A stretch of 42,272 nt of DNA, taken from the IMG/VR virus record IMGVR_UViG_2529292726_000021; one strand, given 5' to 3'. Source of the DNA: a virus. Its lineage: Duplodnaviria; Heunggongvirae; Uroviricota; Caudoviricetes. Shown here piece by piece: positions 1-17,216 of the stretch (positions are counted from its first letter, which is position 1; each line of letters starts with the position of its first letter). A program made the translations under genes and the position numbers. The notes below the pieces were generated by a model. The model was not told the DNA's origin. It saw nothing but the letters and a program-made list of their open reading frames with translations, and made no database searches.

Positions 1-1149
1 AAAGATATCGTTTACTTCCACAGCCTGTTCTGGCCTGCCATGCTGGAAGGCAGCAACTTCCGCAAGCCGACCAACCTGTTTGTTCATGGCTATGTGACGG
101 TGAACGGCGCGAAGATGTCCAAGTCTCGCGGCACCTTTATTAAAGCCAGCACCTGGCTGAATCATTTTGACGCCGACAGCCTGCGTTACTACTACACTGC
201 GAAACTCTCTTCGCGCATTGATGATATCGATCTCAATCTGGAAGATTTCGTTCAGCGTGTGAATGCCGATATCGTTAACAAAGTGGTTAACCTGGCCTCC
301 CGTAATGCAGGCTTTATCAACAAGCGTTTTGACGGCGTGCTGGCAAGCGAACTGGCTGACCCGCAACTGTACAAAACCTTTACTGATGCCGCTGAAGTGA
401 TTGGCGAAGCATGGGAAAGCCGCGAATTTGGCAAAGCTATCCGTGAAATCATGGCACTGGCTGACCTGGCTAACCGCTATGTTGATGAACAGGCTCCGTG
501 GGTGGTGGCGAAGCAGGAAGGACGCGATGCCGATCTGCAGGCGATTTGCTCTATGGGCATTAACCTGTTCCGCGTGCTGATGACGTACCTGAAACCGGTA
601 CTGCCGAAACTGACTGAACGTGCAGAAGCATTCCTGAATACAGAACTGACCTGGGATGGTATCCAGCAACCGCTGCTGGGCCATAAAGTGAATCCGTTCA
701 AGGCACTGTATAACCGTATCGATATGAAACAGGTGGAAGCACTGGTGGAAGCATCCAAAGAAGAAGTGAAAGCCACAGCTGCACCGGTAACTGGCCCACT
801 GGCTGACGACCCGATTCAGGAAACCATCACCTTTGACGACTTCGCCAAAGTTGACCTGCGTGTGGCGCTGATTGAAAACGCGGAGTTTGTCGAAGGTTCT
901 GACAAACTGCTGCGCCTGACGCTGGATCTCGGTGGTGAAAAACGTAATGTCTTCTCAGGCATTCGTTCCGCTTATCCAGATCCACAGGCACTGATTGGTC
1001 GTCACACCATTATGGTGGCTAACCTGGCACCGCGTAAAATGCGCTTCGGTATCTCCGAAGGCATGGTGATGGCTGCTGGCCCTGGCGGAAAAGATATCTT
1101 CCTGTTAAGCCCGGATGCTGGTGCTAAACCAGGCCACCAGGTTAAGTAA
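1..1149 (+). CDS. metG: methionyl-tRNA synthetase, C-terminal part (5' end outside window)
   Basis: Frame open from position 1 to TAA at 1147-1149; translation (KMSKSRGTF ... AKPGHQVK) recognised as enterobacterial MetG C-terminal region. Confidence 0.95.
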
Positions 1150-1167
1150 TTAAACAACCTCTCTTCG

Positions 1168-1198
1168 CAATGCCCGGCAACACGCCGGGCATTTTCAT
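1168..1198 (+). terminator. rho-independent terminator of metG
   Basis: GC hairpin AATGCCCGGC-aacac-GCCGGGCATT followed by TTTTCAT, 20 nt after the metG stop. Confidence 0.7.
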
Positions 1199-1233
1199 AT
1201 AGACACAATCCCTCCTGATTTACACAAGCCCTA

Positions 1234-1302
1234 AAACAATTTGTTTTCTACCTTTTGTTGATTGAGATAATAAGCCACATAAGAAAACAACTTGTTTTGG
1301 AG
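1234..1302 (+). promoter_or_regulatory. early promoter/leader module, copy 1
   Basis: Palindrome AAAACAAtTTGTTTTCTACC (1234-1253), -10-like GATAAT (1266-1271), palindrome AAGAAAACAAcTTGTTTTGG (1281-1298), then GGAG and ATG at 1311. Confidence 0.5.
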
Positions 1303-1310
1303 TAGTTGAA

Positions 1311-1610
1311 ATGTTGAACATTACCCAAGCCTACCAGGTGGCATTGATCAGTTCATCTCATACATCAGAGGAAGATGCTCGCCGATTCATGATCGCAAGC
1401 AATGAGCTGGATTGGGTTTCACAAATTGATGGCGGTTGTATTGTTCACGCCGGGTTACAGGATGATGTCTGGAAAGACGACTTGCGTCGATATGGTATAT
1501 CCGAAGGCGCGATTGCTAACATTCAGAAAGTACTTGATGTAGGCTTTGACTCTGTACATTTTGATTGTGGAGCACCAGTCGTTGAAGGGCTTGAGTGCTG
1601 GAACTGGTAA
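1311..1610 (+). CDS. hypothetical small early protein (99 aa)
   Basis: ATG start 9 nt after GGAG; preceded by the conserved module; no recognisable motif. Confidence 0.6.
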   Translation: MLNITQAYQVALISSSHTSEEDARRFMIASNELDWVSQIDGGCIVHAGLQDDVWKDDLRRYGISEGAIANIQKVLDVGFDSVHFDCGAPVVEGLECWNW

Positions 1611-1655
1611 CAGATATTAAAGCATTGGTAGTTTGTTTTTAGGATTATCAAAGAA

Positions 1656-2390
1656 ATGAAAAAGTTGAAAAGTTTAGAAATCCCTGGGACTGGTTATAAA
1701 TTCTTTATGGACAACGCGGAGTGTGCGCCTAACGCGTTGGAAAAAATACAAAGTCTTATCAACAGCCTTACTGAAGAAGCGAAAGAACTGAAGAGCGAGG
1801 CGACAAAGGACAATACAGCTAAAATCCAATGCTTAAATCTCGTTTCTTATTGTTTATATCAAGTGTCCAAAACACTGATTAAAGGCAATATCTATTACGA
1901 CGATGAAGACACCTCGACACCTGAAGAAAAAGATAGCGATGAAGAACTCTATGAAGATATCTCTACCAGTGCGGGTCACGCTGCCTTCGATGCTATGGGT
2001 GAATCGTCAGGCATCAGATCGTTTGTTGAACAGAACAATTCGACAATAATGATTGAGTACTGTGAACAAACAAGCTCCAAGGCCATACATGTTCTTCACG
2101 ATGTTGCTGCAGGGGTTCGCTGTGAGGCTGAAGCGGTCAGAAAGGATGTATTTGGTGCAGACAGTAATACCGTGAAAGCGTTCATCAACAGTGCTCTGCT
2201 AAATTCTTACTCAACCCTTATCGTCAATGCGGCACTATGCGCAAATTCAGGTGAAGAACACATTGTCATAACTGAAACCAAACATGAGCATCAACAGTCA
2301 CCAACCATAGAAGAGGTAACTGCATTGGCTATCAAACAGGCGAGTGAAATTAGTGATGAAATTCTCTCTCTGCTAAACAAAACTATGTAA
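1656..2390 (+). CDS. hypothetical acidic protein (244 aa)
   Basis: ATG with AAAGAA upstream; D/E-rich stretches such as YYDDEDTSTPEEKDSDEELYEDIS; no catalytic motif recognised. Confidence 0.6.
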   Translation: MKKLKSLEIPGTGYKFFMDNAECAPNALEKIQSLINSLTEEAKELKSEATKDNTAKIQCLNLVSYCLYQVSKTLIKGNIYYDDEDTSTPEEKDSDEELYEDISTSAGHAAFDAMGESSGIRSFVEQNNSTIMIEYCEQTSSKAIHVLHDVAAGVRCEAEAVRKDVFGADSNTVKAFINSALLNSYSTLIVNAALCANSGEEHIVITETKHEHQQSPTIEEVTALAIKQASEISDEILSLLNKTM

Positions 2391-2559
2391 AACATTGATA
2401 ATGGCGGTCACAATTTGATTCTTTTCTATAAGAATCCGTTGATCGCCACTACTCCCCTTCCATACCTGCAATCACATCCTTAAATATCAATAGGTTATAG
2501 TTATTTATACCAATAAGAAAACAACTGAATAACAGATCAACGAAACGTCAACGCTTTCA

Positions 2560-3340
2560 CCCGATTTGGTCTAAAAAATTGACGTTTTCACACATCACTT
2601 CTTATACCCGTAATTCTACGCAGCAGATAGCGCCACAGCGTCCAATTTTCACCACAGACGACCCAACACACTACCAACAAAAACACACGCTCAAAATCGC
2701 TCCCGTTGCGTTACATAACCATATAAACAACTTATTTTCAGGCATAACAAAACAACTAAATAACACACATGCCATTCCCAAAAACAACCAACCTCTTTAT
2801 GGCAGGCTACCGAAAAGACCCACCTCTTCTCCCCAGGCTACCGGACAACCAACCTAACTTTCACAGGCAATCCGAAAACATTCATACGCGCGATACCCAC
2901 GACACGCCATTCCCCAAACAGCGAAGAAACACCAGAATCACTGAAACCCCAACGAAGCCTGTAACCGCAAGGATTCTCTCAATCCCAAAAGACACGAAAC
3001 ATAACAATCACGGGAAACGCCATTACCCAATACACGAATAACTACAAAAGCCTTTCACACACTCCAGACAAACAACTCAAACACAATAACGAAAGGAATC
3101 GCCCACCTGCCATTACTCCATACACGGAGAAGAACAATCACCAAAACGACGAGAACACCCCATAGAAGAACCACCGCAAAACGAACGAAACCACATACAC
3201 CGACAGAGAAAACAACACACCCAATTCACCAACAGAAATAGTCGCCGTATAGAACGTTCTGGAAGGAGTGAGCATTAACGCCTATAGAGAGGTTGAGACA
3301 GATAAAACACAACATGTATAGCGAAGAAGCCAGGTATGTA
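2560..3340 (+). other. A+C-rich, G/T-poor strand-asymmetric tract; candidate non-coding transcript or protein-binding region
   Basis: Sampled 60-nt lines are about 80% A+C on the plus strand; degenerate repeats GCCATT(C/A)CCCAA at about 2772, 2908, 3020, 3110; half copy of the early motif (AAGAAAACAAC, 2515-2525) just upstream. Confidence 0.35.
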
Positions 3341-3353
3341 TAAGTGGGGAGGG

Positions 3354-3378
3354 AAGGAGGGGTGTCGCCTCCTTTTTC
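3354..3378 (+). terminator. candidate terminator hairpin at end of the A+C tract
   Basis: AAGGAGG-ggtgtcg-CCTCCTT followed by a T run; preceded by G-run GGGGAGGGAAGGAGGGG. Confidence 0.4.
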
Positions 3379-3440
3379 GTATTTATTCAACTCCTGATTT
3401 TATCCCCCCGTAACACCCCTACGGTCAGCCTTCGGTCCAT

Positions 3441-3580
3441 ACAGGGAAAAGGTTGCATCCCGCTACAGAAACGGCTGGGTTGCCTTCGGGGAACGGCTGG
3501 AGGTTTTCAGGGAAACGGTCGAGTTGCCTGTGTGGATTTCGGGAAAAGGCTCGATGCCGGTTCAGGAACGGTGGCGTACC
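3441..3580. repeat. iteron-like direct repeat array 1 (six ~21-23 bp imperfect units)
   Basis: Units GGGAAAAGGTTG, AGAAACGGCTGG, GGGGAACGGCTGG, GGGAAACGGTCG, GGGAAAAGGCTCG, GGAACGGTGGCG spaced about two helical turns apart. Confidence 0.6.
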
Positions 3581-3888
3581 GGTATAGCGAGAGGGAGAGT
3601 TGCGGCTACCCACCTGTAATGTGCGGGAAGAAGAGAGGCGCTCACGTGCAGGCGGACTTGCTTACCGCTGGATTCCCTCTGAATGCCAGCTACAGCGTAA
3701 TTGTGCCAGACAGCCAACGGGTCACAATCGATTTCAGTAGGTTTTCGGGGAGAGGATTATTCTGCCCCCCAGCCACTTTCGGCCACTAAATCAGAATAAT
3801 GTAAAAAGTGTACTCGGTACTGAACCTGAAAACTCACTGCCAAAACCACATTCACCGGAATAAAATCCTTTTTCGCCTGTGTGTTATT

Positions 3889-3927
3889 GCGATAATAACA
3901 CCATCAAGAAAACATGTTGTTTAAGGA
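3889..3927 (+). promoter_or_regulatory. early promoter/leader module, copy
   Basis: GCGATAATAACACCATC followed by AAGAAAACAtgTTGTTTAAGGA; ATG at 3935. Confidence 0.5.
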
Positions 3928-3934
3928 TTGCTTT

Positions 3935-4264
3935 ATGTTTGCAAATATCGACATCAACCAAATCAAGAAAATGACTCAAAAAGAGTTTGACCAGTTTTAT
4001 GAGCTGGAAGGTTGGTCTTCCACTCTGATTAATTCAAGATGGGTGCTGGAACTGATGACTCGTGATGACGCACCTGCTTTGATGATCAGCGACCTGGGTG
4101 AAGATGCTGACTTTATGGATATGAGCGAATTTTGTGTGGACACATACAACCGCAGCCAGAAGTACTACTTCACATGCGATAGCGAAAATGACGTGATTTC
4201 TAAGGTCTATCTTCACCTCGTCCAGCATTGGGACGTTCAGGACTTCCTTGAGATGTTCGCGTAA
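3935..4264 (+). CDS. hypothetical small acidic protein (109 aa)
   Basis: Start moved from track ATG 3914 (inside the motif) to ATG 3935, which has AAGGA 8 nt upstream. Confidence 0.55.
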   Translation: MFANIDINQIKKMTQKEFDQFYELEGWSSTLINSRWVLELMTRDDAPALMISDLGEDADFMDMSEFCVDTYNRSQKYYFTCDSENDVISKVYLHLVQHWDVQDFLEMFA

Positions 4265-4273
4265 ACTCAACCA

Positions 4274-4300
4274 AAGCCAGCATTGCTGGCTTAATTTCTC
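4274..4300 (+). terminator. candidate terminator
   Basis: AAGCCAGCA-tt-GCTGGCTT hairpin followed by AATTTCTCT. Confidence 0.45.
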
Positions 4301-4373
4301 TATAGCCGCAGGGAAGAACCTGCATATAGCTCATGCACCTGATCAATATGCTTTGTAGCCGTTTTCTTACTGG

Positions 4374-4412
4374 TATTATTTACGCCATTGAGAAAACAAG
4401 TTGTTTACGGAG
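4374..4412 (+). promoter_or_regulatory. early promoter/leader module, copy
   Basis: GAGAAAACAAGTTGTTTACGGAG immediately before ATG 4418. Confidence 0.5.
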
Positions 4413-4417
4413 TTGTG

Positions 4418-4729
4418 ATGAAAAAATCATTGGTTCTTGGTCTGGACAAAGACCAGAAGAGAAAAGAGAAGCCTGCGCTGGTTGCTCAATTAACTTTGCT
4501 GGACATCGTTGCCAATGGAACCTCTATTCGTCTGTTCCGTGAAACAGCGGTGTCTTTCGATAAAAACACCTTTACTCGTTATGTAATGAATGTTCGTCGC
4601 CAGCGTGGAAAAGGCTGGGTGGCATTTCAAAGAATGTGGCCGGAACATCAGCTCGAACTGGCTTTGATGGAAGTTAACCGCGTGGCCCAGCAAGAGATTC
4701 AGAGAGCATCAGTGATGGCAATAGCCTGA
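4418..4729 (+). CDS. hypothetical small basic protein (103 aa)
   Basis: Track ORF starts at a TTG inside the motif (4388); ATG at 4418 with ACGGAG upstream preferred. Confidence 0.55.
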   Translation: MKKSLVLGLDKDQKRKEKPALVAQLTLLDIVANGTSIRLFRETAVSFDKNTFTRYVMNVRRQRGKGWVAFQRMWPEHQLELALMEVNRVAQQEIQRASVMAIA

Positions 4730-4765
4730 TAATGTGCAAGTGGTAATTAGTCGACCGTACGACAG

Positions 4766-4792
4766 CCCCGCCATCCTTACGGGGTTTTTTTG
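4766..4792 (+). terminator. rho-independent terminator
   Basis: CCCCG-ccatcctta-CGGGG followed by TTTTTTT. Confidence 0.75.
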
Positions 4793-4855
4793 TATTGTAA
4801 GTACATACTTACGATCATAGAATATAAAAATAACCAATACACTACGGAGAGTGAA

Positions 4856-5251
4856 ATGACCGTTAAACGCGAAAAACTGACAGTTGATGTTTACTATGCC
4901 TCTGAAACCGCCGAAGGTAAGAATGTGGCAAAAATCACCGTTGTTACGTACAACACCGAAACTGGTGCCGAAGTACAGGCCAGTACGATCGTGCGTAAAT
5001 GTGATGCCTCCGGCGGCGAGTACGCGACTCAATACCAGTCCATTCTCGATGCAACTGACCCGCTGCTGCTGAAAATCGAGAACTACTTCCGCCAGGTTGA
5101 TGAAGAGGTGTTTGAAACCATGATGAATATGGTTAATTCCGTATTCACCTCCAGCCTGAACACCAGCACCACCTGGATTGGTCAGTACGGCCTGCGCATT
5201 ACCTCTGGCATTCCTGCTGACACCTTAATCCCTGAAAGCGTATTCGCTTAA
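4856..5251 (+). CDS. hypothetical protein (131 aa)
   Basis: ATG 4856 with ACGGAGAG upstream; track ORF start 4790 lies in the terminator region and is unlikely. Confidence 0.6.
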   Translation: MTVKREKLTVDVYYASETAEGKNVAKITVVTYNTETGAEVQASTIVRKCDASGGEYATQYQSILDATDPLLLKIENYFRQVDEEVFETMMNMVNSVFTSSLNTSTTWIGQYGLRITSGIPADTLIPESVFA

Positions 5252-5260
5252 TCCTCTTTA

Positions 5261-5288
5261 AATGGCGCGTAAACCGCGCCATTTTCTT
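5261..5288 (+). terminator. rho-independent terminator
   Basis: AATGGCGCG-taaa-CCGCGCCATT followed by TTTCTT. Confidence 0.75.
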
Positions 5289-5296
5289 ATACCCGA

Positions 5297-5359
5297 TAAC
5301 AATTTGTTTTCTACCTTATCTACACTGCGATAATTACAACAACAAGAAAACAAGAGGAA
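5297..5359 (+). promoter_or_regulatory. early promoter/leader module, copy
   Basis: ATAACAAtTTGTTTTCTACC (5297-5315), GATAAT (5329-5334), AAGAAAACAAGAGG (5345-5358); ATG 5365. Confidence 0.5.
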
Positions 5360-5364
5360 AGCAG

Positions 5365-5559
5365 ATGAAAACTATTACTCAAGTACAGCAAATCTGGGCG
5401 CAGCTAGCAAATGAGCCTGTGGATAACAATCAGCAGCTTGAGCGTGCATTTCACCATTTTGAAGCCGGTGACAGCATCATTGACGTGTGGGTGTGGATCG
5501 ACGGGCTGTGTCCAGATATCACCGTTGCACAGTTGCAGGAGATGGGGCACGATGACTGA
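5365..5559 (+). CDS. hypothetical small protein (64 aa)
   Basis: ATG with AGAGGAAAG upstream. Confidence 0.5.
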   Translation: MKTITQVQQIWAQLANEPVDNNQQLERAFHHFEAGDSIIDVWVWIDGLCPDITVAQLQEMGHDD

Positions 5560-5637
5560 TCTCACCATTACCCCAAAAGCACAAAATGTATTCCTTGAAT
5601 CATGGCTGGATTTGCCGCATTAAGTGAGAGTATTACG

Positions 5638-5901
5638 ATGGCAAAATTGACCAGAGCGCAGGAGCATGACCTGCGACGCGCAATTTATGATCTTGAAAGG
5701 GGGATCGCGTATCTGCGACACCCAAAAACTGCGGTTTGCTATCGCCACGATTACCCTGCAACTACCACATCGGCATATTCATCGCACGACGGGAAGACAT
5801 CACTTTCCCCTGTTTGCATCGACTACGGCTCGAATATCGTCGGTCTTTATCATGCGCTAGAAACGTTGAAAGAGTTCGTTGCAGCACATCGAAAGCAATG
5901 A
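5638..5901 (+). CDS. hypothetical small protein (87 aa)
   Basis: Internal ATG 5638 preceded by GTGAGAG preferred over track start 5602, which lacks an SD; start uncertain. Confidence 0.45.
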   Translation: MAKLTRAQEHDLRRAIYDLERGIAYLRHPKTAVCYRHDYPATTTSAYSSHDGKTSLSPVCIDYGSNIVGLYHALETLKEFVAAHRKQ

Positions 5902-6030
5902 TATATAGGCTGCCAATGCTGGTGGCCTTAAATGACCATCCTGTTCCACGCAGGCTAAAAACACCAACCTCTTACCTCTAGGCAACCGACAAACCCACCT
6001 GTTCCCGTCCGGCTACCGCAACTTTCCACT

Positions 6031-6090
6031 TTGACGCCTTATTCGTACAACGATAATTAACACCAACAAGAAAACAATTTGTTATTTACG
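6031..6090 (+). promoter_or_regulatory. early promoter/leader module, copy with sigma70-like -35
   Basis: TTGACG (6031-6036), 17 bp, TAATTA within CGATAATTAACACCAAC, then AAGAAAACAAtTTGTTATTTACG (6068-6090); ATG 6105. Confidence 0.55.
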
Positions 6091-6104
6091 ATAAGGAATT
6101 AATC

Positions 6105-6587
6105 ATGAATTTTATCGCTACTGTAAACGCACCCGCACATGGCAATATCGCTGTAACGTTCTCTGACATTGAAAAACGAGTACTTGGTGCATGGCGCGAC
6201 AATGAGACGGTAGAACTGTCAGCACAAGAAAAATGCAATATTGCACGCGACATCATTGGCAATCGTCGTTACTCGCGGGTATTTGAGAAAGCGTATGTGG
6301 TAAATTCTGGATTCGGAACGTTCGTCTTTCCGGTGCGCTCCGGGCGATTCTGCCAGTCCAAGCTGATTGAGTTCGCTACGCAGATTTCTTTCTGGATTAA
6401 AACTCAATCGTCGTTCAAATTTTCCGACGATGAAGCAGTATCGCAGGGGATGCGGATCGCCAACAATGCGATTAAATGCAAAAACATTACGTATACCGCT
6501 GGCGTTGATACATGGAAACTGTTTTGCGCTAACTTTATGCTGAATGTATACGCAAGCAACCGCATCCACATCCTTGATGGCGTGTAA
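6105..6587 (+). CDS. hypothetical protein (160 aa)
   Basis: ATG with AAGGAA 7 nt upstream; no motif recognised. Confidence 0.6.
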   Translation: MNFIATVNAPAHGNIAVTFSDIEKRVLGAWRDNETVELSAQEKCNIARDIIGNRRYSRVFEKAYVVNSGFGTFVFPVRSGRFCQSKLIEFATQISFWIKTQSSFKFSDDEAVSQGMRIANNAIKCKNITYTAGVDTWKLFCANFMLNVYASNRIHILDGV

Positions 6588-6596
6588 CTGAGAAGA

Positions 6597-6618
6597 GGGC
6601 CAGAAACGGCCCTTTATC
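6597..6618 (+). terminator. candidate terminator
   Basis: GGGCC-agaaac-GGCCC followed by TTTATCT. Confidence 0.45.
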
Positions 6619-6636
6619 TATAGCCACCAGCTGCCG

Positions 6637-6761
6637 CAGGGAAATTTTCAGAAGCGGCGAGGAACGTATTCATGAGCCGACGGGGGAACGGCCAGGATTT
6701 TTTCGGGAAACGGCTGCATTCGCCTTTGTGTAGAAAAAACATCGGGAAGCTGGTGGAATCC
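6637..6761. repeat. iteron-like direct repeat array 2
   Basis: GGGGGAACGGCCAGG, GGGAAACGGCTGCATTCGCC, GGGAAGCTGGTGGAATCC share the GGRAAMGGYTG core of array 1. Confidence 0.55.
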
Positions 6762-6842
6762 AACCAGCGGTTGTCGGACAGGTGAGCGAGGAAAATTATG
6801 ATGACTTTCGTCGCCTGAGACATCCAGATTTCTTTCGTAGCG

Positions 6843-6897
6843 TAATCACATATGTGATTAAGTGGTGTGATTATGTGAAAAATCACGCGCACATAAT
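6843..6897. promoter_or_regulatory. cluster of palindromic operator-like sites
   Basis: Perfect 18-bp palindrome TAATCACATATGTGATTA (6843-6860) followed by further TGTGATTA / CACATAAT half-sites. Confidence 0.45.
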
Positions 6898-7134
6898 ACG
6901 CGAGCGGATACGGAGCAAAACAAAATGCCGATCCGCGCCGACAAATAAACGCGGATCATAAAGCAAGACTAAAAGCCAATAATTAACCATACTCTATAGC
7001 GCAATATAACGCGTTTTAAGCGCGTTAATGTGTTAAGTAATGGGTATATACTGGTAAGGATATAAAAGCTCGTCTGTGGCGTTATTTTGGCGCTTATTTT
7101 TATGTTGTTGGAGTGAGTTAAAGACAATAAAAAA

Positions 7135-7214
7135 GCGCCACTATTGGCGCGTTATGGTGGAAGTATTGGAAACGAAAAAAGCGCCCATAGTGGGCGCTAT
7201 TGTTTTTATTTTTC
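7135..7214. terminator. tandem hairpins; bidirectional terminator
   Basis: GCGCCA-ctat-TGGCGC (7135-7150) and GCGCCCA-tag-TGGGCGC (7181-7197) flanked by A runs on one side and T runs on the other. Confidence 0.65.
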
Positions 7215-11923: not shown

Positions 11924-12202
11924 TTACGGCAACCTGCTCAGTATTTCCTCTAAATCTTTTTTTGTCATATTGGAGTTTTCATAGATGCGCATGATTTTCT
12001 CACGCGTCTTAGCGGAAACCCCAACGGCAGATGTGACTTTGTCAAATTCAGCCATAGTCATCGTCTCCAGAATGGCATTGATAACTTCAGCCTTAGACAT
12101 CTTGATTTTTTTCTCTTTGAGTTTTATTTGGAATTTTCCAAGTTTTTCATTGGCCTTATCAGACAATGCCACTTGGCAATAAGTTGTTTTCTTTTCGCTC
12201 AT
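11924..12202 (-). CDS. hypothetical small Lys-rich protein (92 aa), possibly DNA-binding
   Basis: ATG 2 nt after the helicase stop (translational coupling); 5' coding region contains AAGAAAACAACTTATTG, resembling the early motif. Confidence 0.5.
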   Translation of the reverse strand: MSEKKTTYCQVALSDKANEKLGKFQIKLKEKKIKMSKAEVINAILETMTMAEFDKVTSAVGVSAKTREKIMRIYENSNMTKKDLEEILSRLP

Positions 12203-13764: not shown

Positions 13765-13846
13765 AAACCTCTTTCCTTAGTGCCTTTTGTATGTTATTTG
13801 GCTATTATAATAAGTAAGTGATTACTTAGTGGATTGTAGCAATAAA

Positions 13847-14527
13847 ATGGATGTAAAAATCACGATTTTGCAGGTTGATGTTGCCAACCTTCGCCCGAAT
13901 ACCTGGAACACCAATTCGGTTGGTGCGCAGAATTTTGAAAAACTGAAAGGTTCTATCGAAAAATTGGGCTTTTTTAAGCCAATTTTGGCTCGTGAACTTG
14001 AAGATGGATTTTTTGAAATCCTCGGCGGCGAACATCGCTGGCGTGCCGCTATTGAGCAAGGAATTTCAACGGTTCCAGTGCTTTCTGTGGGCAAAATTAG
14101 CGATGTCGTAGCTAAACAGATGTCACTGGTGGACAACGAGCGATACGGTGAAGACGACCAAATCGCATTGCAACGCTTCATTGAAGAAATTCAGTCAGAA
14201 CTTGACTATCAACTGTCTGAAATCGCCCCGTATGACGACGAAATCTCGATGGTTTTAGCAAAAGAGGCGGCAATCGACCTTGAAGCACTGGAGGCGTTGT
14301 CTCGTGGTAGTGATGAGCCTGTCGATACCGACAAACGAGAGAAAACCGAACGTGTCGGTGCGGAACATCAGACCATGCGCTTCAAAGTAACTTTCGATGC
14401 GTCAGATCGCGTTGCAGAAACCATAAAAAACATCATCAAAGAGCAGGCTATTAACACCGGTAATGAAATGGAGAACGCTGGTGAGGCTCTGGTGTGGCTG
14501 GTCGACTACTACAAGGAGCGTATGTAA
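13847..14527 (+). CDS. ParB-like N-terminal domain protein
   Basis: GGEHRWRAA resembles the ParB/sulfiredoxin GxxRxxA box; start ambiguous (GTG 13829 or ATG 13847). Confidence 0.55.
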   Translation: MDVKITILQVDVANLRPNTWNTNSVGAQNFEKLKGSIEKLGFFKPILARELEDGFFEILGGEHRWRAAIEQGISTVPVLSVGKISDVVAKQMSLVDNERYGEDDQIALQRFIEEIQSELDYQLSEIAPYDDEISMVLAKEAAIDLEALEALSRGSDEPVDTDKREKTERVGAEHQTMRFKVTFDASDRVAETIKNIIKEQAINTGNEMENAGEALVWLVDYYKERM

Positions 14528-15195
14528 TGACCAAAAAGTTTGAAATCGTATATCGCGACCCGGCAGATCTTATTCCCTATGAGATGAATGCCAAAAAGCA
14601 TGATGAACAGCAGATCAGAGATCTGGCCGCAGCCATTAAAAAGCGCGGATTTGACCAGCCAATTACGGTCGATAAGAACGACGTAATTATTACTGGCCAC
14701 GGCCTCCGTGAGGCTGCAATTTTTGCTGGACTTGAGCGCGTACCGGTTATTGTTCGTGATGATCTGAGTGATGACGAGGTACGTGCAAAGCGCCTTGAAG
14801 ATAACCGACTTGCCAGCATTGATTACGATGCAATTAAGCTACAGAAAGAGCTTGAGTCGCTTGTTCTGGACGATATCGAGGTTTTCGGCTTCGAAGAGCG
14901 TGAGTTGAATGTTCTCGTTGGCAGTATGACAGAAGAAATGGACACCGACTCGCTAGTTATCGATCTTGGCGAAGAAACTAAACGACAGAAGGATGAACAC
15001 ACCGAGATCAGTCGTGAAGTTGCAGCGGAAGAAGTACGTGTTGTCGACGTATTGGGCTTTAAAACGCTTCCTGCTGGCTCTGCCATTGTTGTTGGTGATT
15101 TGCTTGCCCACATGGAAGAAATGACGGGAGAAAGCGGGGTAGACGCATTTGTGGCATATGCGGAGAAGATCTCTTCCGGGGAGATGGCTGCATGA
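14527..15195 (+). CDS. second ParB-like domain protein
   Basis: TGHGLREAA box; ATG overlaps the preceding stop (TAATG); track start 14494 would overlap the upstream gene. Confidence 0.5.
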   Translation: MTKKFEIVYRDPADLIPYEMNAKKHDEQQIRDLAAAIKKRGFDQPITVDKNDVIITGHGLREAAIFAGLERVPVIVRDDLSDDEVRAKRLEDNRLASIDYDAIKLQKELESLVLDDIEVFGFEERELNVLVGSMTEEMDTDSLVIDLGEETKRQKDEHTEISREVAAEEVRVVDVLGFKTLPAGSAIVVGDLLAHMEEMTGESGVDAFVAYAEKISSGEMAA

Positions 15196-16753: not shown

Positions 16754-17020
16754 ATGACGTTAACCGATAAACAAAAGGACATCATCAAAACGCTCAATCT
16801 CGGTTATGAGCGAGGTCATCTACTTGATCTGGACGAATTGCTTGAAGTTTTGCCGTACAAGACAACCAAGCAAAGTATCCAGTTCTCAATTCGCGCTCTG
16901 ATAAAAAAGGGGCTTGTGGAGAAAGGGCATACGCGCCAACGCAGTGACAATCGCTATCACCGCCGAACTCTTGGGTTAACCACTTTAGGTCGAGCCAAAG
17001 CGAAGTTACTGGTGATGTAA
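16754..17020 (+). CDS. small basic protein, possible winged-helix DNA-binding protein (88 aa)
   Basis: ATG with AAGGA upstream; basic C-terminus; fold assignment is a guess. Confidence 0.45.
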   Translation: MTLTDKQKDIIKTLNLGYERGHLLDLDELLEVLPYKTTKQSIQFSIRALIKKGLVEKGHTRQRSDNRYHRRTLGLTTLGRAKAKLLVM

Positions 17021-17022
17021 TC

Positions 17023-17121
17023 GGTCTGGGAGCTTATTTAAAGACCTGCTTCTGTATATATAAATAATAAGTAACTTATTAAATATATACGGAAGCAGGC
17101 TTAATAAGACATGCCCAGACC
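17023..17121. repeat. ~100-bp imperfect inverted repeat
   Basis: Outer arms GGTCTGGG / CCCAGACC; inner arms CCTGCTTCtGTATATAT / ATATACgGAAGCAGG around central AATAAGTAACTTATT. Confidence 0.6.
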
Positions 17122-17134
17122 TAATTAAACACCC

Positions 17135-17196
17135 CAGAAAACAAGTTGGTTAGCATACGCAGTAAACAAGTTGTTTTAGAGCGCATGGACGCGCTC
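17135..17196 (+). promoter_or_regulatory. tandem early-type motifs plus hairpin upstream of terminase genes
   Basis: CAGAAAACAAGTTGGTTAG (17135-17153), GTAAACAAGTTGTTTTAGAG (17162-17181), then GAGCGC-atggac-GCGCTC hairpin. Confidence 0.5.
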
Positions 17197-17216
17197 TGTG
17201 TGTTTTAGAGGGATCT

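Follow-up and report, generated by a model that had tools for sequence, protein, structure and literature searches.

What does a short palindrome do when it recurs, at a constant distance from a promoter-like element, in front of one gene after another? The question is raised by a stretch of DNA of 42,272 nucleotides from a virus of the Caudoviricetes (IMG/VR record IMGVR_UViG_2529292726_000021), here called the window in its full length, which carries an array of small open reading frames (ORFs) headed by such palindromes. A sequence-only reading had proposed that a single dimeric regulator controls the whole gene battery or, alternatively, that the palindrome forms a stem-loop stabilising each mRNA. 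The reading favoured here, with a probability of about one half, is that of a DNA operator for a repressor encoded by the phage-plasmid family itself and dispersed over the replicon like the operators of P1 C1 or RK2 KorA/KorB. The promoters, the transcription starts, the recognition of the motif as DNA, the repression upon binding and the binder are what we infer in this reading from the arrangement described below.

By sequence comparison, the window is part of an SSU5/pHCM2-like phage-plasmid and not of a chromosome. Its region 1150-7200 is 97% identical to Escherichia phage Cyrano (OV696614), an SSU5-like phage-plasmid with the host strain LF82 (PMC9928086), and the copies of this region in E. 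coli, detected in 246 of 5,426 complete genomes, lie on plasmids (~108 kb) only. SSU5/pHCM2-like phage-plasmids are frequent in E. coli and are also found in Salmonella Typhi and Klebsiella.

An intergenic palindrome restricted to one phage-plasmid family

The core of the motif is a palindrome of 13 bp, AAACAAnTTGTTT, and its full oriented form reads AGAAAACAA-n-TTGTTTA. The first part, AGAAAACAA, occurs ten times in the window, and eight of these occurrences fall inside positions 1200-6100. Searching the core AAACAANTTGTTT with at most one mismatch retrieved 9 sites in the window against 0.27 expected from dinucleotide shuffles (maximum 1), 18 against 0.67 in Cyrano and 20 against 0.37 in SSU5. 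The remaining ~36 kb of the window hold no site, and none was found in 80 kb of enterobacterial chromosome scanned as control DNA. Every copy located by the sequence-only reading was recovered with the sequence ascribed to it. No account of the motif was found within the literature searchable here, and a search of the whole window against Rfam 15 gave no family match at gathering score.

All core sites in the two complete relatives, Cyrano and SSU5, lie outside credible coding sequence. As checked against the annotation, sites stand just 5' of plus-strand genes of unrelated function. Besides the small-ORF array, these comprise the terminase small-subunit gene (terS), parA, the gene of a DnaB-like helicase, cobT, nrdB, a tciA-like gene and a number of hypothetical genes. 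A further 80 related IMG/VR loci, found via a FljA-like gene at 60-100% identity, carry the motif at a density of 4.2 per 10 kb. Among the perfect palindromes of these loci, AAACAAnTTGTTT ranks first by a wide margin (319 occurrences, the next one 38), and the motif is invariant across the loci. It is identical in elements from E. coli, Salmonella, Klebsiella, Enterobacter and Citrobacter. When 50,697 phage records were searched with a 72-nt consensus of the complete module described below, no more than 13 matched, each an SSU5-like element (Escherichia, Salmonella, Klebsiella); the module could thus be used as a specific sequence marker for this family.

Architecture of the predicted promoter module

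Seven copies of the module, M1 to M7, are present in the window (Table 1). Their common order is a -10 element, a spacer of 10-11 nt, a downstream (D) site AAGAAAACAAnTTGTTTA and, mostly directly after it, a Shine-Dalgarno (SD) sequence. The gap between the -10 hexamer and AGAAAACAA amounts to 10-11 nt in six of the seven modules and to ~8-9 nt in M2. The -10 element reads GATAAT or TATTAT and is preceded by TGn in M1, M3, M4 and M5, i.e. in four of the six modules of the small-ORF interval. In the layout proposed earlier, a GATAAT-like -10 followed by CACCAnC and the palindrome, the CACCAnC block is only loosely conserved. The palindromes that had been seen over the -35 position of two copies are full inverted copies of the motif (U sites, TTAAACAAnTTGTTTTCTACC) in M1 and M5. 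Two elements had escaped notice, an inverted upstream half-site in M4 and the two-palindrome module M7 in front of terS.

Table 1. Module copies and candidate regulator genes in the window.
Feature	Position	Strand	Sequence and context
M1, U site	1231-1252	+	CTAAAACAATTTGTTTTCTACC; inverted motif over -35, centre 51 bp from D centre
M1, extended -10	1263-1271	+	TGAGATAAT; predicted from sequence
M1, D site	1281-1298	+	AAGAAAACAACTTGTTTT; then SD GGAG (1299-1302), ATG 1311 (DUF5983 ORF)
M2, left-arm-only copy	2515-2525	+	AAGAAAACAAC; downstream of -10-like TATTTA (2502-2507); no ORF behind
M3	3888-3923	+	extended -10 TGCGATAAT (3888-3896), D site AAGAAAACATGTTGTTTA (3906-3923); then SD AAGGA, ATG 3935
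M4	4353-4407	+	-35-like TTGTAG, inverted half-site CGTTTTCTT (4360-4368), extended -10 TGGTATTAT (4371-4379)
M4, D site	4390-4407	+	GAGAAAACAAGTTGTTTA; then SD GGAG, ATG 4418
M5	5294-5358	+	U site CGATAACAATTTGTTTTCTACC (5294-5315), extended -10 TGCGATAAT (5326-5334)
M5, left-arm-only D site	5344-5353	+	AAGAAAACAA; fused to SD GAGGA; ATG 5365
M6	6031-6085	+	-35 TTGACG (6031-6036), -10 GATAAT (6052-6057), D site AAGAAAACAATTTGTTAT (6068-6085); then SD AAGGA (6093-6097), ATG 6105
M7	17120-17213	+	-10-like CCTAAT, palindromes 17135-17152 and 17161-17180 (25 bp apart); then terminator-like GC hairpin (17178-17197) with T run, SD, ATG 17217 of terminase small-subunit gene
FljA-like ORF, 172 aa	8656-9174	-	2.5 kb from the array; candidate RNA-level binder
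92-aa ORF (phrog_1466)	11924-12202	-	weak candidate DNA-binding regulator
88-aa ORF (phrog_900)	16754-17020	+	directly upstream of M7; weak candidate winged-helix regulator

The geometry is shared by the whole family. When 363 distinct sites from the window, the two complete genomes and the 80 related loci were pooled and a position table was built from the 273 that could be oriented, the core positions turned out to be 93-100% conserved, except for the base with which the right arm begins (81%); the T of the -10 element at position -14 is present in 94% and the TG at -22/-21 in 52-59%. The U sites lie upstream of the predicted start, outside the predicted transcript, and mirror the D site. 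Of 92 distinct pairs, 90 have the centres of U and D 51 bp apart, while the sequence in between differs from one module lineage to another. As the promoter-proximal AGA flank is found in both U and D, the pair is arranged in mirror symmetry about the -10 element.

Upstream regions aligned by their genes, without regard to the motif, confirm this picture: half-site, -10 element and D site are ~90-100% conserved and the flanks much less. For M4, with 48 distinct orthologous upstream regions, the blocks reach ~90-100% against 30-60% in the flanks. M7 has its orthologues at Cyrano 54-100 and SSU5 54-95, with the arrangement kept in both, and the left arm of M2 is kept in SSU5 at 90531.

The small ORFs form separate units, in each of which the terminator-like hairpin of the previous gene is followed by the module, the SD sequence, the ORF and the next hairpin. 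Hairpins beside modules are located at 1172-1196, 4274-4292, 5262-5285 and 6596-6616. The products of the small ORFs match only PHROGs of unknown function. Since the leader of terS itself contains a hairpin resembling an intrinsic terminator, late genes may in addition require antitermination. The annotated starts of some relatives fall within or upstream of the palindrome, for example at an ATG within AAGAAAACATGTTG (window position 3914 against 3935; CYRAN_105 and CYRAN_110); judging from the positions of the SD sequences, translation probably begins at the later ATGs.

The view that the module precedes essentially every early ORF was too broad in one respect and too narrow in another. It stands in front of five of the eight ORFs of the interval, corresponding to six of seven predicted transcription units; the ORF 4856-5251 has its own promoter, TTGTAA-17-TAGAAT, in place of a module, and the ORFs at 1656 and 5638 sit behind another gene. 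On the other side, the motif also precedes terS, parA, the helicase gene, cobT and nrdB. Because the conservation is seen in gene-anchored alignments and the motif is spread over genes of unrelated function, it is, judged from sequence, a family-wide regulon mark rather than a feature of 'early' genes, a term that was an assumption.

A dispersed DNA operator as the favoured reading

Under the operator reading, the module would consist of an operator built into a compact sigma-70 promoter, which in most cases has an extended -10 (TGnGATAAT) and a weak or absent -35. A sequence-specific, probably dimeric DNA-binding protein of the phage-plasmid would occupy the D site (~+4 to +23 of the predicted transcript) and, in some modules, also the mirrored U site over the -35 position 51 bp away. 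Occupancy of both sites would bracket the -10 element and exclude RNA polymerase. With the same operator at ~20 promoters of a ~108-kb replicon, one protein could hold down all of these genes while the element persists as a plasmid (lysogenic state); in a newly entered cell without this protein, all of them would be switched on at once.

Several observations point in this direction. The motif keeps a constant offset of 10-11 nt from -10-like hexamers, and the U sites cover the predicted -35 position. The dyad is exact, its C being mirrored by its G, and the mirrored U sites keep a constant distance; it is these U sites that were weighed most heavily in favouring a DNA over an RNA operator. The palindrome-headed predicted transcription units, ~20 in number, point to one undescribed master regulator of accessory, replication, partition and packaging genes. 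The proposal of a single dimeric regulator over a gene battery is thus retained as the best-supported reading on the grounds of placement, invariance, 51-bp spacing and low RNA in the lysogen, with the difference that the battery extends beyond the small ORFs.

The RNA levels derive from RNA-seq of the LF82 lysogen (S1 Table of PMC9928086), a single strain, in which the median is 9.8. The module genes CYRAN_1, 58, 101, 105, 106 and 110 are expressed at 5.7-12.8, the module-bearing helicase gene at 21 and CYRAN_111 at 25. The low RNA of the module genes is consistent with repression in the plasmid state.

Other observations weigh against this reading. The values come from one strain only, and the parA operon, which carries a site, is expressed at 50-89. 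Exactly one side of the site bears a GA flank in 273 of the 363 distinct sites, against ~177 under independence, and the site is therefore polar; such polarity is not predicted by a simple homodimer. The end of the D core lies at a median of 14 nt (mode 12) from the start codon, by which the motif is bound to the ribosome-binding site as tightly as to the promoter. Copies that consist of the left arm only are conserved (M2, M5, Cyrano 45321, SSU5 85651). A canonical -35/-10 scan does not call the module promoters. Common descent of a few module lineages, instead of selection, could be behind much of the fixed spacing. Finally, profile searches, hhalign and AlphaFold2 (AF2) models yielded no candidate binder with a statistically supported DNA-binding fold.

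Should the operator reading hold, some 20 promoters with one invariant operator would offer an experimental handle on the choice between plasmid life and lytic growth. The regulon is defined by sequence, it predicts which genes are co-fired on entry, and the search for the regulator narrows to a single 19-mer.

Relation to known dispersed regulons

The systems closest in their working are the P1 C1 regulon and RK2 KorA/KorB. In P1, 22 C1 operators are dispersed over the plasmid prophage (PMC8546580). As in P1, one short operator is found here at many promoters throughout the replicon of a low-copy plasmid element, in front of replication as well as accessory operons. The C1 operator is a 17-bp asymmetric sequence, ATTGCTCTAATAAATTT (PMC8546580), whereas the motif described here is a 13-bp dyad with a polar flank, and the two share no sequence similarity.

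The operators of KorA and KorB are palindromic. On RK2/RP4 they recur at many promoters, KorB is at the same time a ParB protein and the control operon is autoregulated (PMC11790492, PMC2665229). Recurrent short palindromes on one replicon and a regulator, here a candidate one, linked to partition are common features, whereas the operator sequence differs and the candidate here is small and ParG-like and belongs to a type Ib ParA system. As the motif resembles neither the C1 nor the KorA/KorB operators, it belongs to neither family in a strict sense. What is proposed is a dispersed-operator regulon on a plasmid prophage with a sequence distinct from both. Its architecture is unusual as well: the dyad is polar, an extended -10 is flanked by two mirrored copies with a distance of 51 bp, and the D site is fused to the ribosome-binding site.

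Candidate binders

The most attractive binder, a lead suggested by sequence, is a small ParG-like protein encoded beside a type Ib ParA (CYRAN_29, outside the window). The promoter of the parA operon carries one site each in Cyrano (29256) and SSU5 (30447), and the expression of the operon in the lysogen (50-89 against the median of 9.8) also speaks for this lead. The ParG-like protein is the product of the second gene of this operon; it has 119 aa, and behind its basic tail come the segments KSRTMSxEDE and TRSDVIRAA, which are invariant down to an overall identity of 48%. The invariance of these segments parallels that of the motif. The protein gives a sub-threshold match to the model of the aCcr1-family regulators (E 2e-4, 21 bits, cutoff 60), which we take to be ribbon-helix-helix proteins. 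The fold was not confirmed: hhalign comparisons with Arc, Mnt and CopG remained below 1% probability and profile searches against the PDB were uninformative. The sequence TAGGCATTTAGG was considered as a centromere of the par system and discarded: Cyrano has a single copy of it and SSU5 has two, and it resembles a -35 region that was duplicated.

Two ORFs of the window are weaker candidates (Table 1). The 92-aa ORF has an orthologue, CYRAN_117, that is expressed at 114 in the lysogen. It resembles a ribbon-helix-helix protein by eye only; hhalign against Arc, Mnt and CopG was non-significant (<1%), and its AF2 model was of low confidence (predicted local distance difference test score, pLDDT, 67) and without meaningful fold matches, so that the assignment was dropped. 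Autoregulation of this ORF through a motif-like sequence at its start codon, AAGAAAACAACTTATTG (12192, minus strand), was likewise rejected: the sequence is confined to the E. coli subgroup, the N-terminus is different elsewhere and the resemblance is taken as chance. The NCBIfam matches of the 88-aa ORF all stayed below threshold (Sta1, Lrs14 and LexA N-terminal families; E 0.0025-0.047), and the RNA of this ORF is at background in the lysogen.

CYRAN_45, a helix-turn-helix repressor, has been called the master repressor of Cyrano lysogeny (PMC9928086). Its own intergenic region has other palindromes (GGTAAGtgCTTACC) and no copy of the motif, and SSU5, which lacks the gene, keeps 20 sites; for these two reasons CYRAN_45 is an unlikely binder. 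SSU5 lacks the whole integrase-repressor block. The repeated palindrome of the CYRAN_45 intergenic region (Cyrano 42575-42825) has the form GGTAAG..CTTACC.

A possible reading of the motif as an RNA operator

Among the alternatives, the one that survives best reads the motif as RNA, i.e. as a single-stranded operator at the extreme 5' end of the leader (AAGAAAACAAnUUGUUUA, abutting the SD sequence) that is bound by the FljA-like protein of the window. We regard it as unlikely, albeit deserving of serious attention. Binding would block ribosomes and perhaps destabilise the mRNA. The result would be translational control of a whole regulon, comparable to that by T4 RegA and working by the FljA-fliC principle. 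The FljA-like ORF is a full-length match to Pfam Flag1_repress (PF03614; E 1.3e-68, profile positions 1-170 of 170). Its AF2 model (pLDDT 76) consists of two tandem units of one helix plus five strands, and the best 50 fold matches in the PDB are all Hfq, with target-normalised template modelling (TM) scores of 0.67-0.84. The model suggests that tandem Hfq/Sm-like domains may be the structural basis of RNA binding by FljA; in the literature searched, no paper was found that describes FljA as Hfq-like. The two faces of Hfq bind A-rich and U-rich sequence, and the motif, with its A-rich arm ahead of a U-rich one, would suit them.

The gene is present in every family member, the Klebsiella elements included. 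To our knowledge, Klebsiella pneumoniae has no flagellin, so that fliC cannot be the only target of the FljA-like protein. The median of 14 nt between the D core and the start codon, the polarity of the site relative to transcription and the conserved left-arm-only copies fused to the SD sequence are also what would be expected of an RNA operator.

The U sites are the main obstacle to this reading, being inverted and outside the predicted transcript, yet as conserved as the D sites and fixed at 51 bp from them. Nor does recognition of a single strand require a dyad that is exact down to its mirrored C and G. The leader of the FljA-like gene itself lacks the motif, and the RNA of this gene is low in the lysogen grown in LB (18). 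At some promoters, e.g. that of parA (TATAAGAAAACAAG), the best -10 overlaps the left flank, and the transcript would therefore start inside the motif.

As in Salmonella phase variation, a FljA-family protein is encoded beside the array and the motif is found in short leaders by the SD sequence; FljA has one known target, whereas there would be ~20 here, and the element carries no flagellin gene. The leader of Salmonella fliC shares the 8-mer CAAGUUGU with the motif, yet no more than 8 of the 12 core positions agree, a similarity without significance; a likeness of the motif to the FljA target, based on CAAGTTGT shared by the Salmonella and Citrobacter fliC leaders, was rejected on the same count of 8 of 12. 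T4 RegA is a phage protein that represses many early mRNAs via an A/U-rich element at the translation start region. Its sites overlap the AUG and are loosely conserved, whereas the motif is an exact dyad that is fixed relative to the -10 element and has copies outside the predicted transcripts. We know of no Sm fold in RegA. If the FljA-like protein does read the motif as RNA, it would stand for a new class of global translational repressors, with an Hfq fold and encoded by a mobile element.

The stretch behind M2 is an observation in its own right. Positions 2395-3605 form an ORF-poor region of ~1.2 kb that starts at M2 and is 68.6% identical to SSU5 90410-91656, i.e. as well conserved as the neighbouring genes. 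The plus strand of 2516-3245 is rich in A and C (A 0.40, C 0.32, G 0.12, T 0.16), and the stretch ends at a terminator-like hairpin (3351-3377). It has no match in Rfam and its reads in the LF82 lysogen are at floor level. Words of the GAAAACA type are mildly enriched in it (3 against 0.3 expected). The stretch could be a long CA-rich non-coding RNA or a site that acts at the DNA level.

An extended version of the RNA reading, to which we accord little credence, would combine these elements: the FljA-like protein as global translational repressor of ~20 leaders, M2 as the promoter of a CA-rich decoy RNA of ~850 nt (2513-3377) and Salmonella FljA as a domesticated offshoot with a single target. 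The M2 RNA with its additional GAAAACA-type words would then titrate the FljA-like protein in the manner of the sponge RNAs CrcZ and CsrB.

Less likely readings: promoter cassettes, host factors and stem-loops

The module might also do without any trans-acting factor, as a mobile promoter cassette composed of a terminator, a strong promoter and a conserved initial transcribed region that spreads and is homogenised by recombination. The conserved positions +1 to +20 would then serve promoter escape or translation efficiency. The precedent is provided by the PeSLs of T4-type phages, cassettes of a sigma-70 promoter and a terminator that precede small ORFans in a variable region with mosaic boundaries (PMC2839356, PMC4122927). 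Repeated predicted promoters beside terminator-like hairpins, small ORFs and a variable region are found here as well, some mosaic boundaries fall at the modules, and each small ORF forms its own unit with such a hairpin upstream. The module is a homology island in front of unrelated genes: window positions 1229-1309 are 85% identical to SSU5 88314-88392, with different ORFs behind. Homology breakpoints cluster at 3900-3939, 4340-4359 and 5320-5359, that is at M3, M4 and M5; among the 65 distinct alignment patterns, plain ends of genes are a further place of clustering. Relative to Cyrano, the window shows a gene replacement that begins at 5321; this end, one of two, falls inside M5.

Recombination, however, accounts for the spread of the module but not for the fact that conservation is highest in a perfect 13-bp dyad, and it leaves the inverted dyad over the -35 position at a fixed distance without explanation. 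PeSLs are defined by a promoter and a terminator stem-loop, whereas an operator-like dyad is present here downstream of the -10 element and occurs also at the promoters of core genes (parA, helicase, nrdB, terS) that lack the surroundings of a cassette. As a complete account the cassette is therefore improbable. PeSL-like recombination is probably behind the spread of the module, not behind the conservation of the dyad.

Binding of the palindrome by a DNA-binding protein of the enterobacterial host, which would explain why the motif is identical in elements from five genera, is very doubtful. A host regulator is expected to have chromosomal sites, and the 80 kb of enterobacterial chromosome sampled contain none. 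Nor is the motif known to match the consensus of an E. coli regulator, with IHF, KdgR, PurR, DeoR, CRP and FNR considered.

The stem-loop proposed earlier as the alternative to a repressor, which could draw on the position of the motif at the predicted 5' end of the transcript, is hardly credible, given that leaders from the predicted start to the AUG fold no better than shuffled sequences (-3.8, -0.9, -2.9, 0 and -3.9 kcal/mol; z-scores -0.33, +1.17, -0.15, not defined and -1.14), that the palindrome is not the preferred pairing, that its one-base centre forces a stem of five A-U pairs, that changes in the inner arms are uncompensated (AAACATgTTGTTT, AAACAAcATGTTT), that two copies lack the right arm and that the U copies are not part of the predicted transcript. 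The one leader that is more stable than its shuffled versions is that of terS (z -2.25), owing to pairing of its two sites and to the separate GC hairpin.

Further features of the element

The gene order in the window is metG, the small-ORF array, the FljA-like gene, genes of a UvsW-like helicase and of ParB_N proteins, and the packaging and tail genes. The metG fragment at 1-1149 belongs to the phage-plasmid itself and adjoins an apbC-like gene. The phage-plasmid carries a full-length host-like metG, encoding methionyl-tRNA synthetase, together with apbC/mrp (window 1-1149; positions 2709-6000 of the locus of a relative); RNA of the apbC-like gene reaches 92 in the LF82 lysogen. Two neighbouring ParB_N-domain proteins of 232 and 233 aa are encoded at 13829-15195, remote from the parA of the element, and their Cyrano orthologues are silent in the lysogen. 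Judged by their titles, some records of the phage collection are named for the carbapenemase genes KPC and OXA-48.

Two kinds of short-repeat arrays with a period of ~30 nt, made up of ACCnACCT..CAGGCTACCG units and of GGGAAACGG-type units, are located at 2781-2877 and 5930-6022 and at 3444-3575 and 6683-6716. Each kind occurs twice, flanking small-ORF cassettes. In their sequence organisation, these arrays appear to resemble iterons or centromere repeats.

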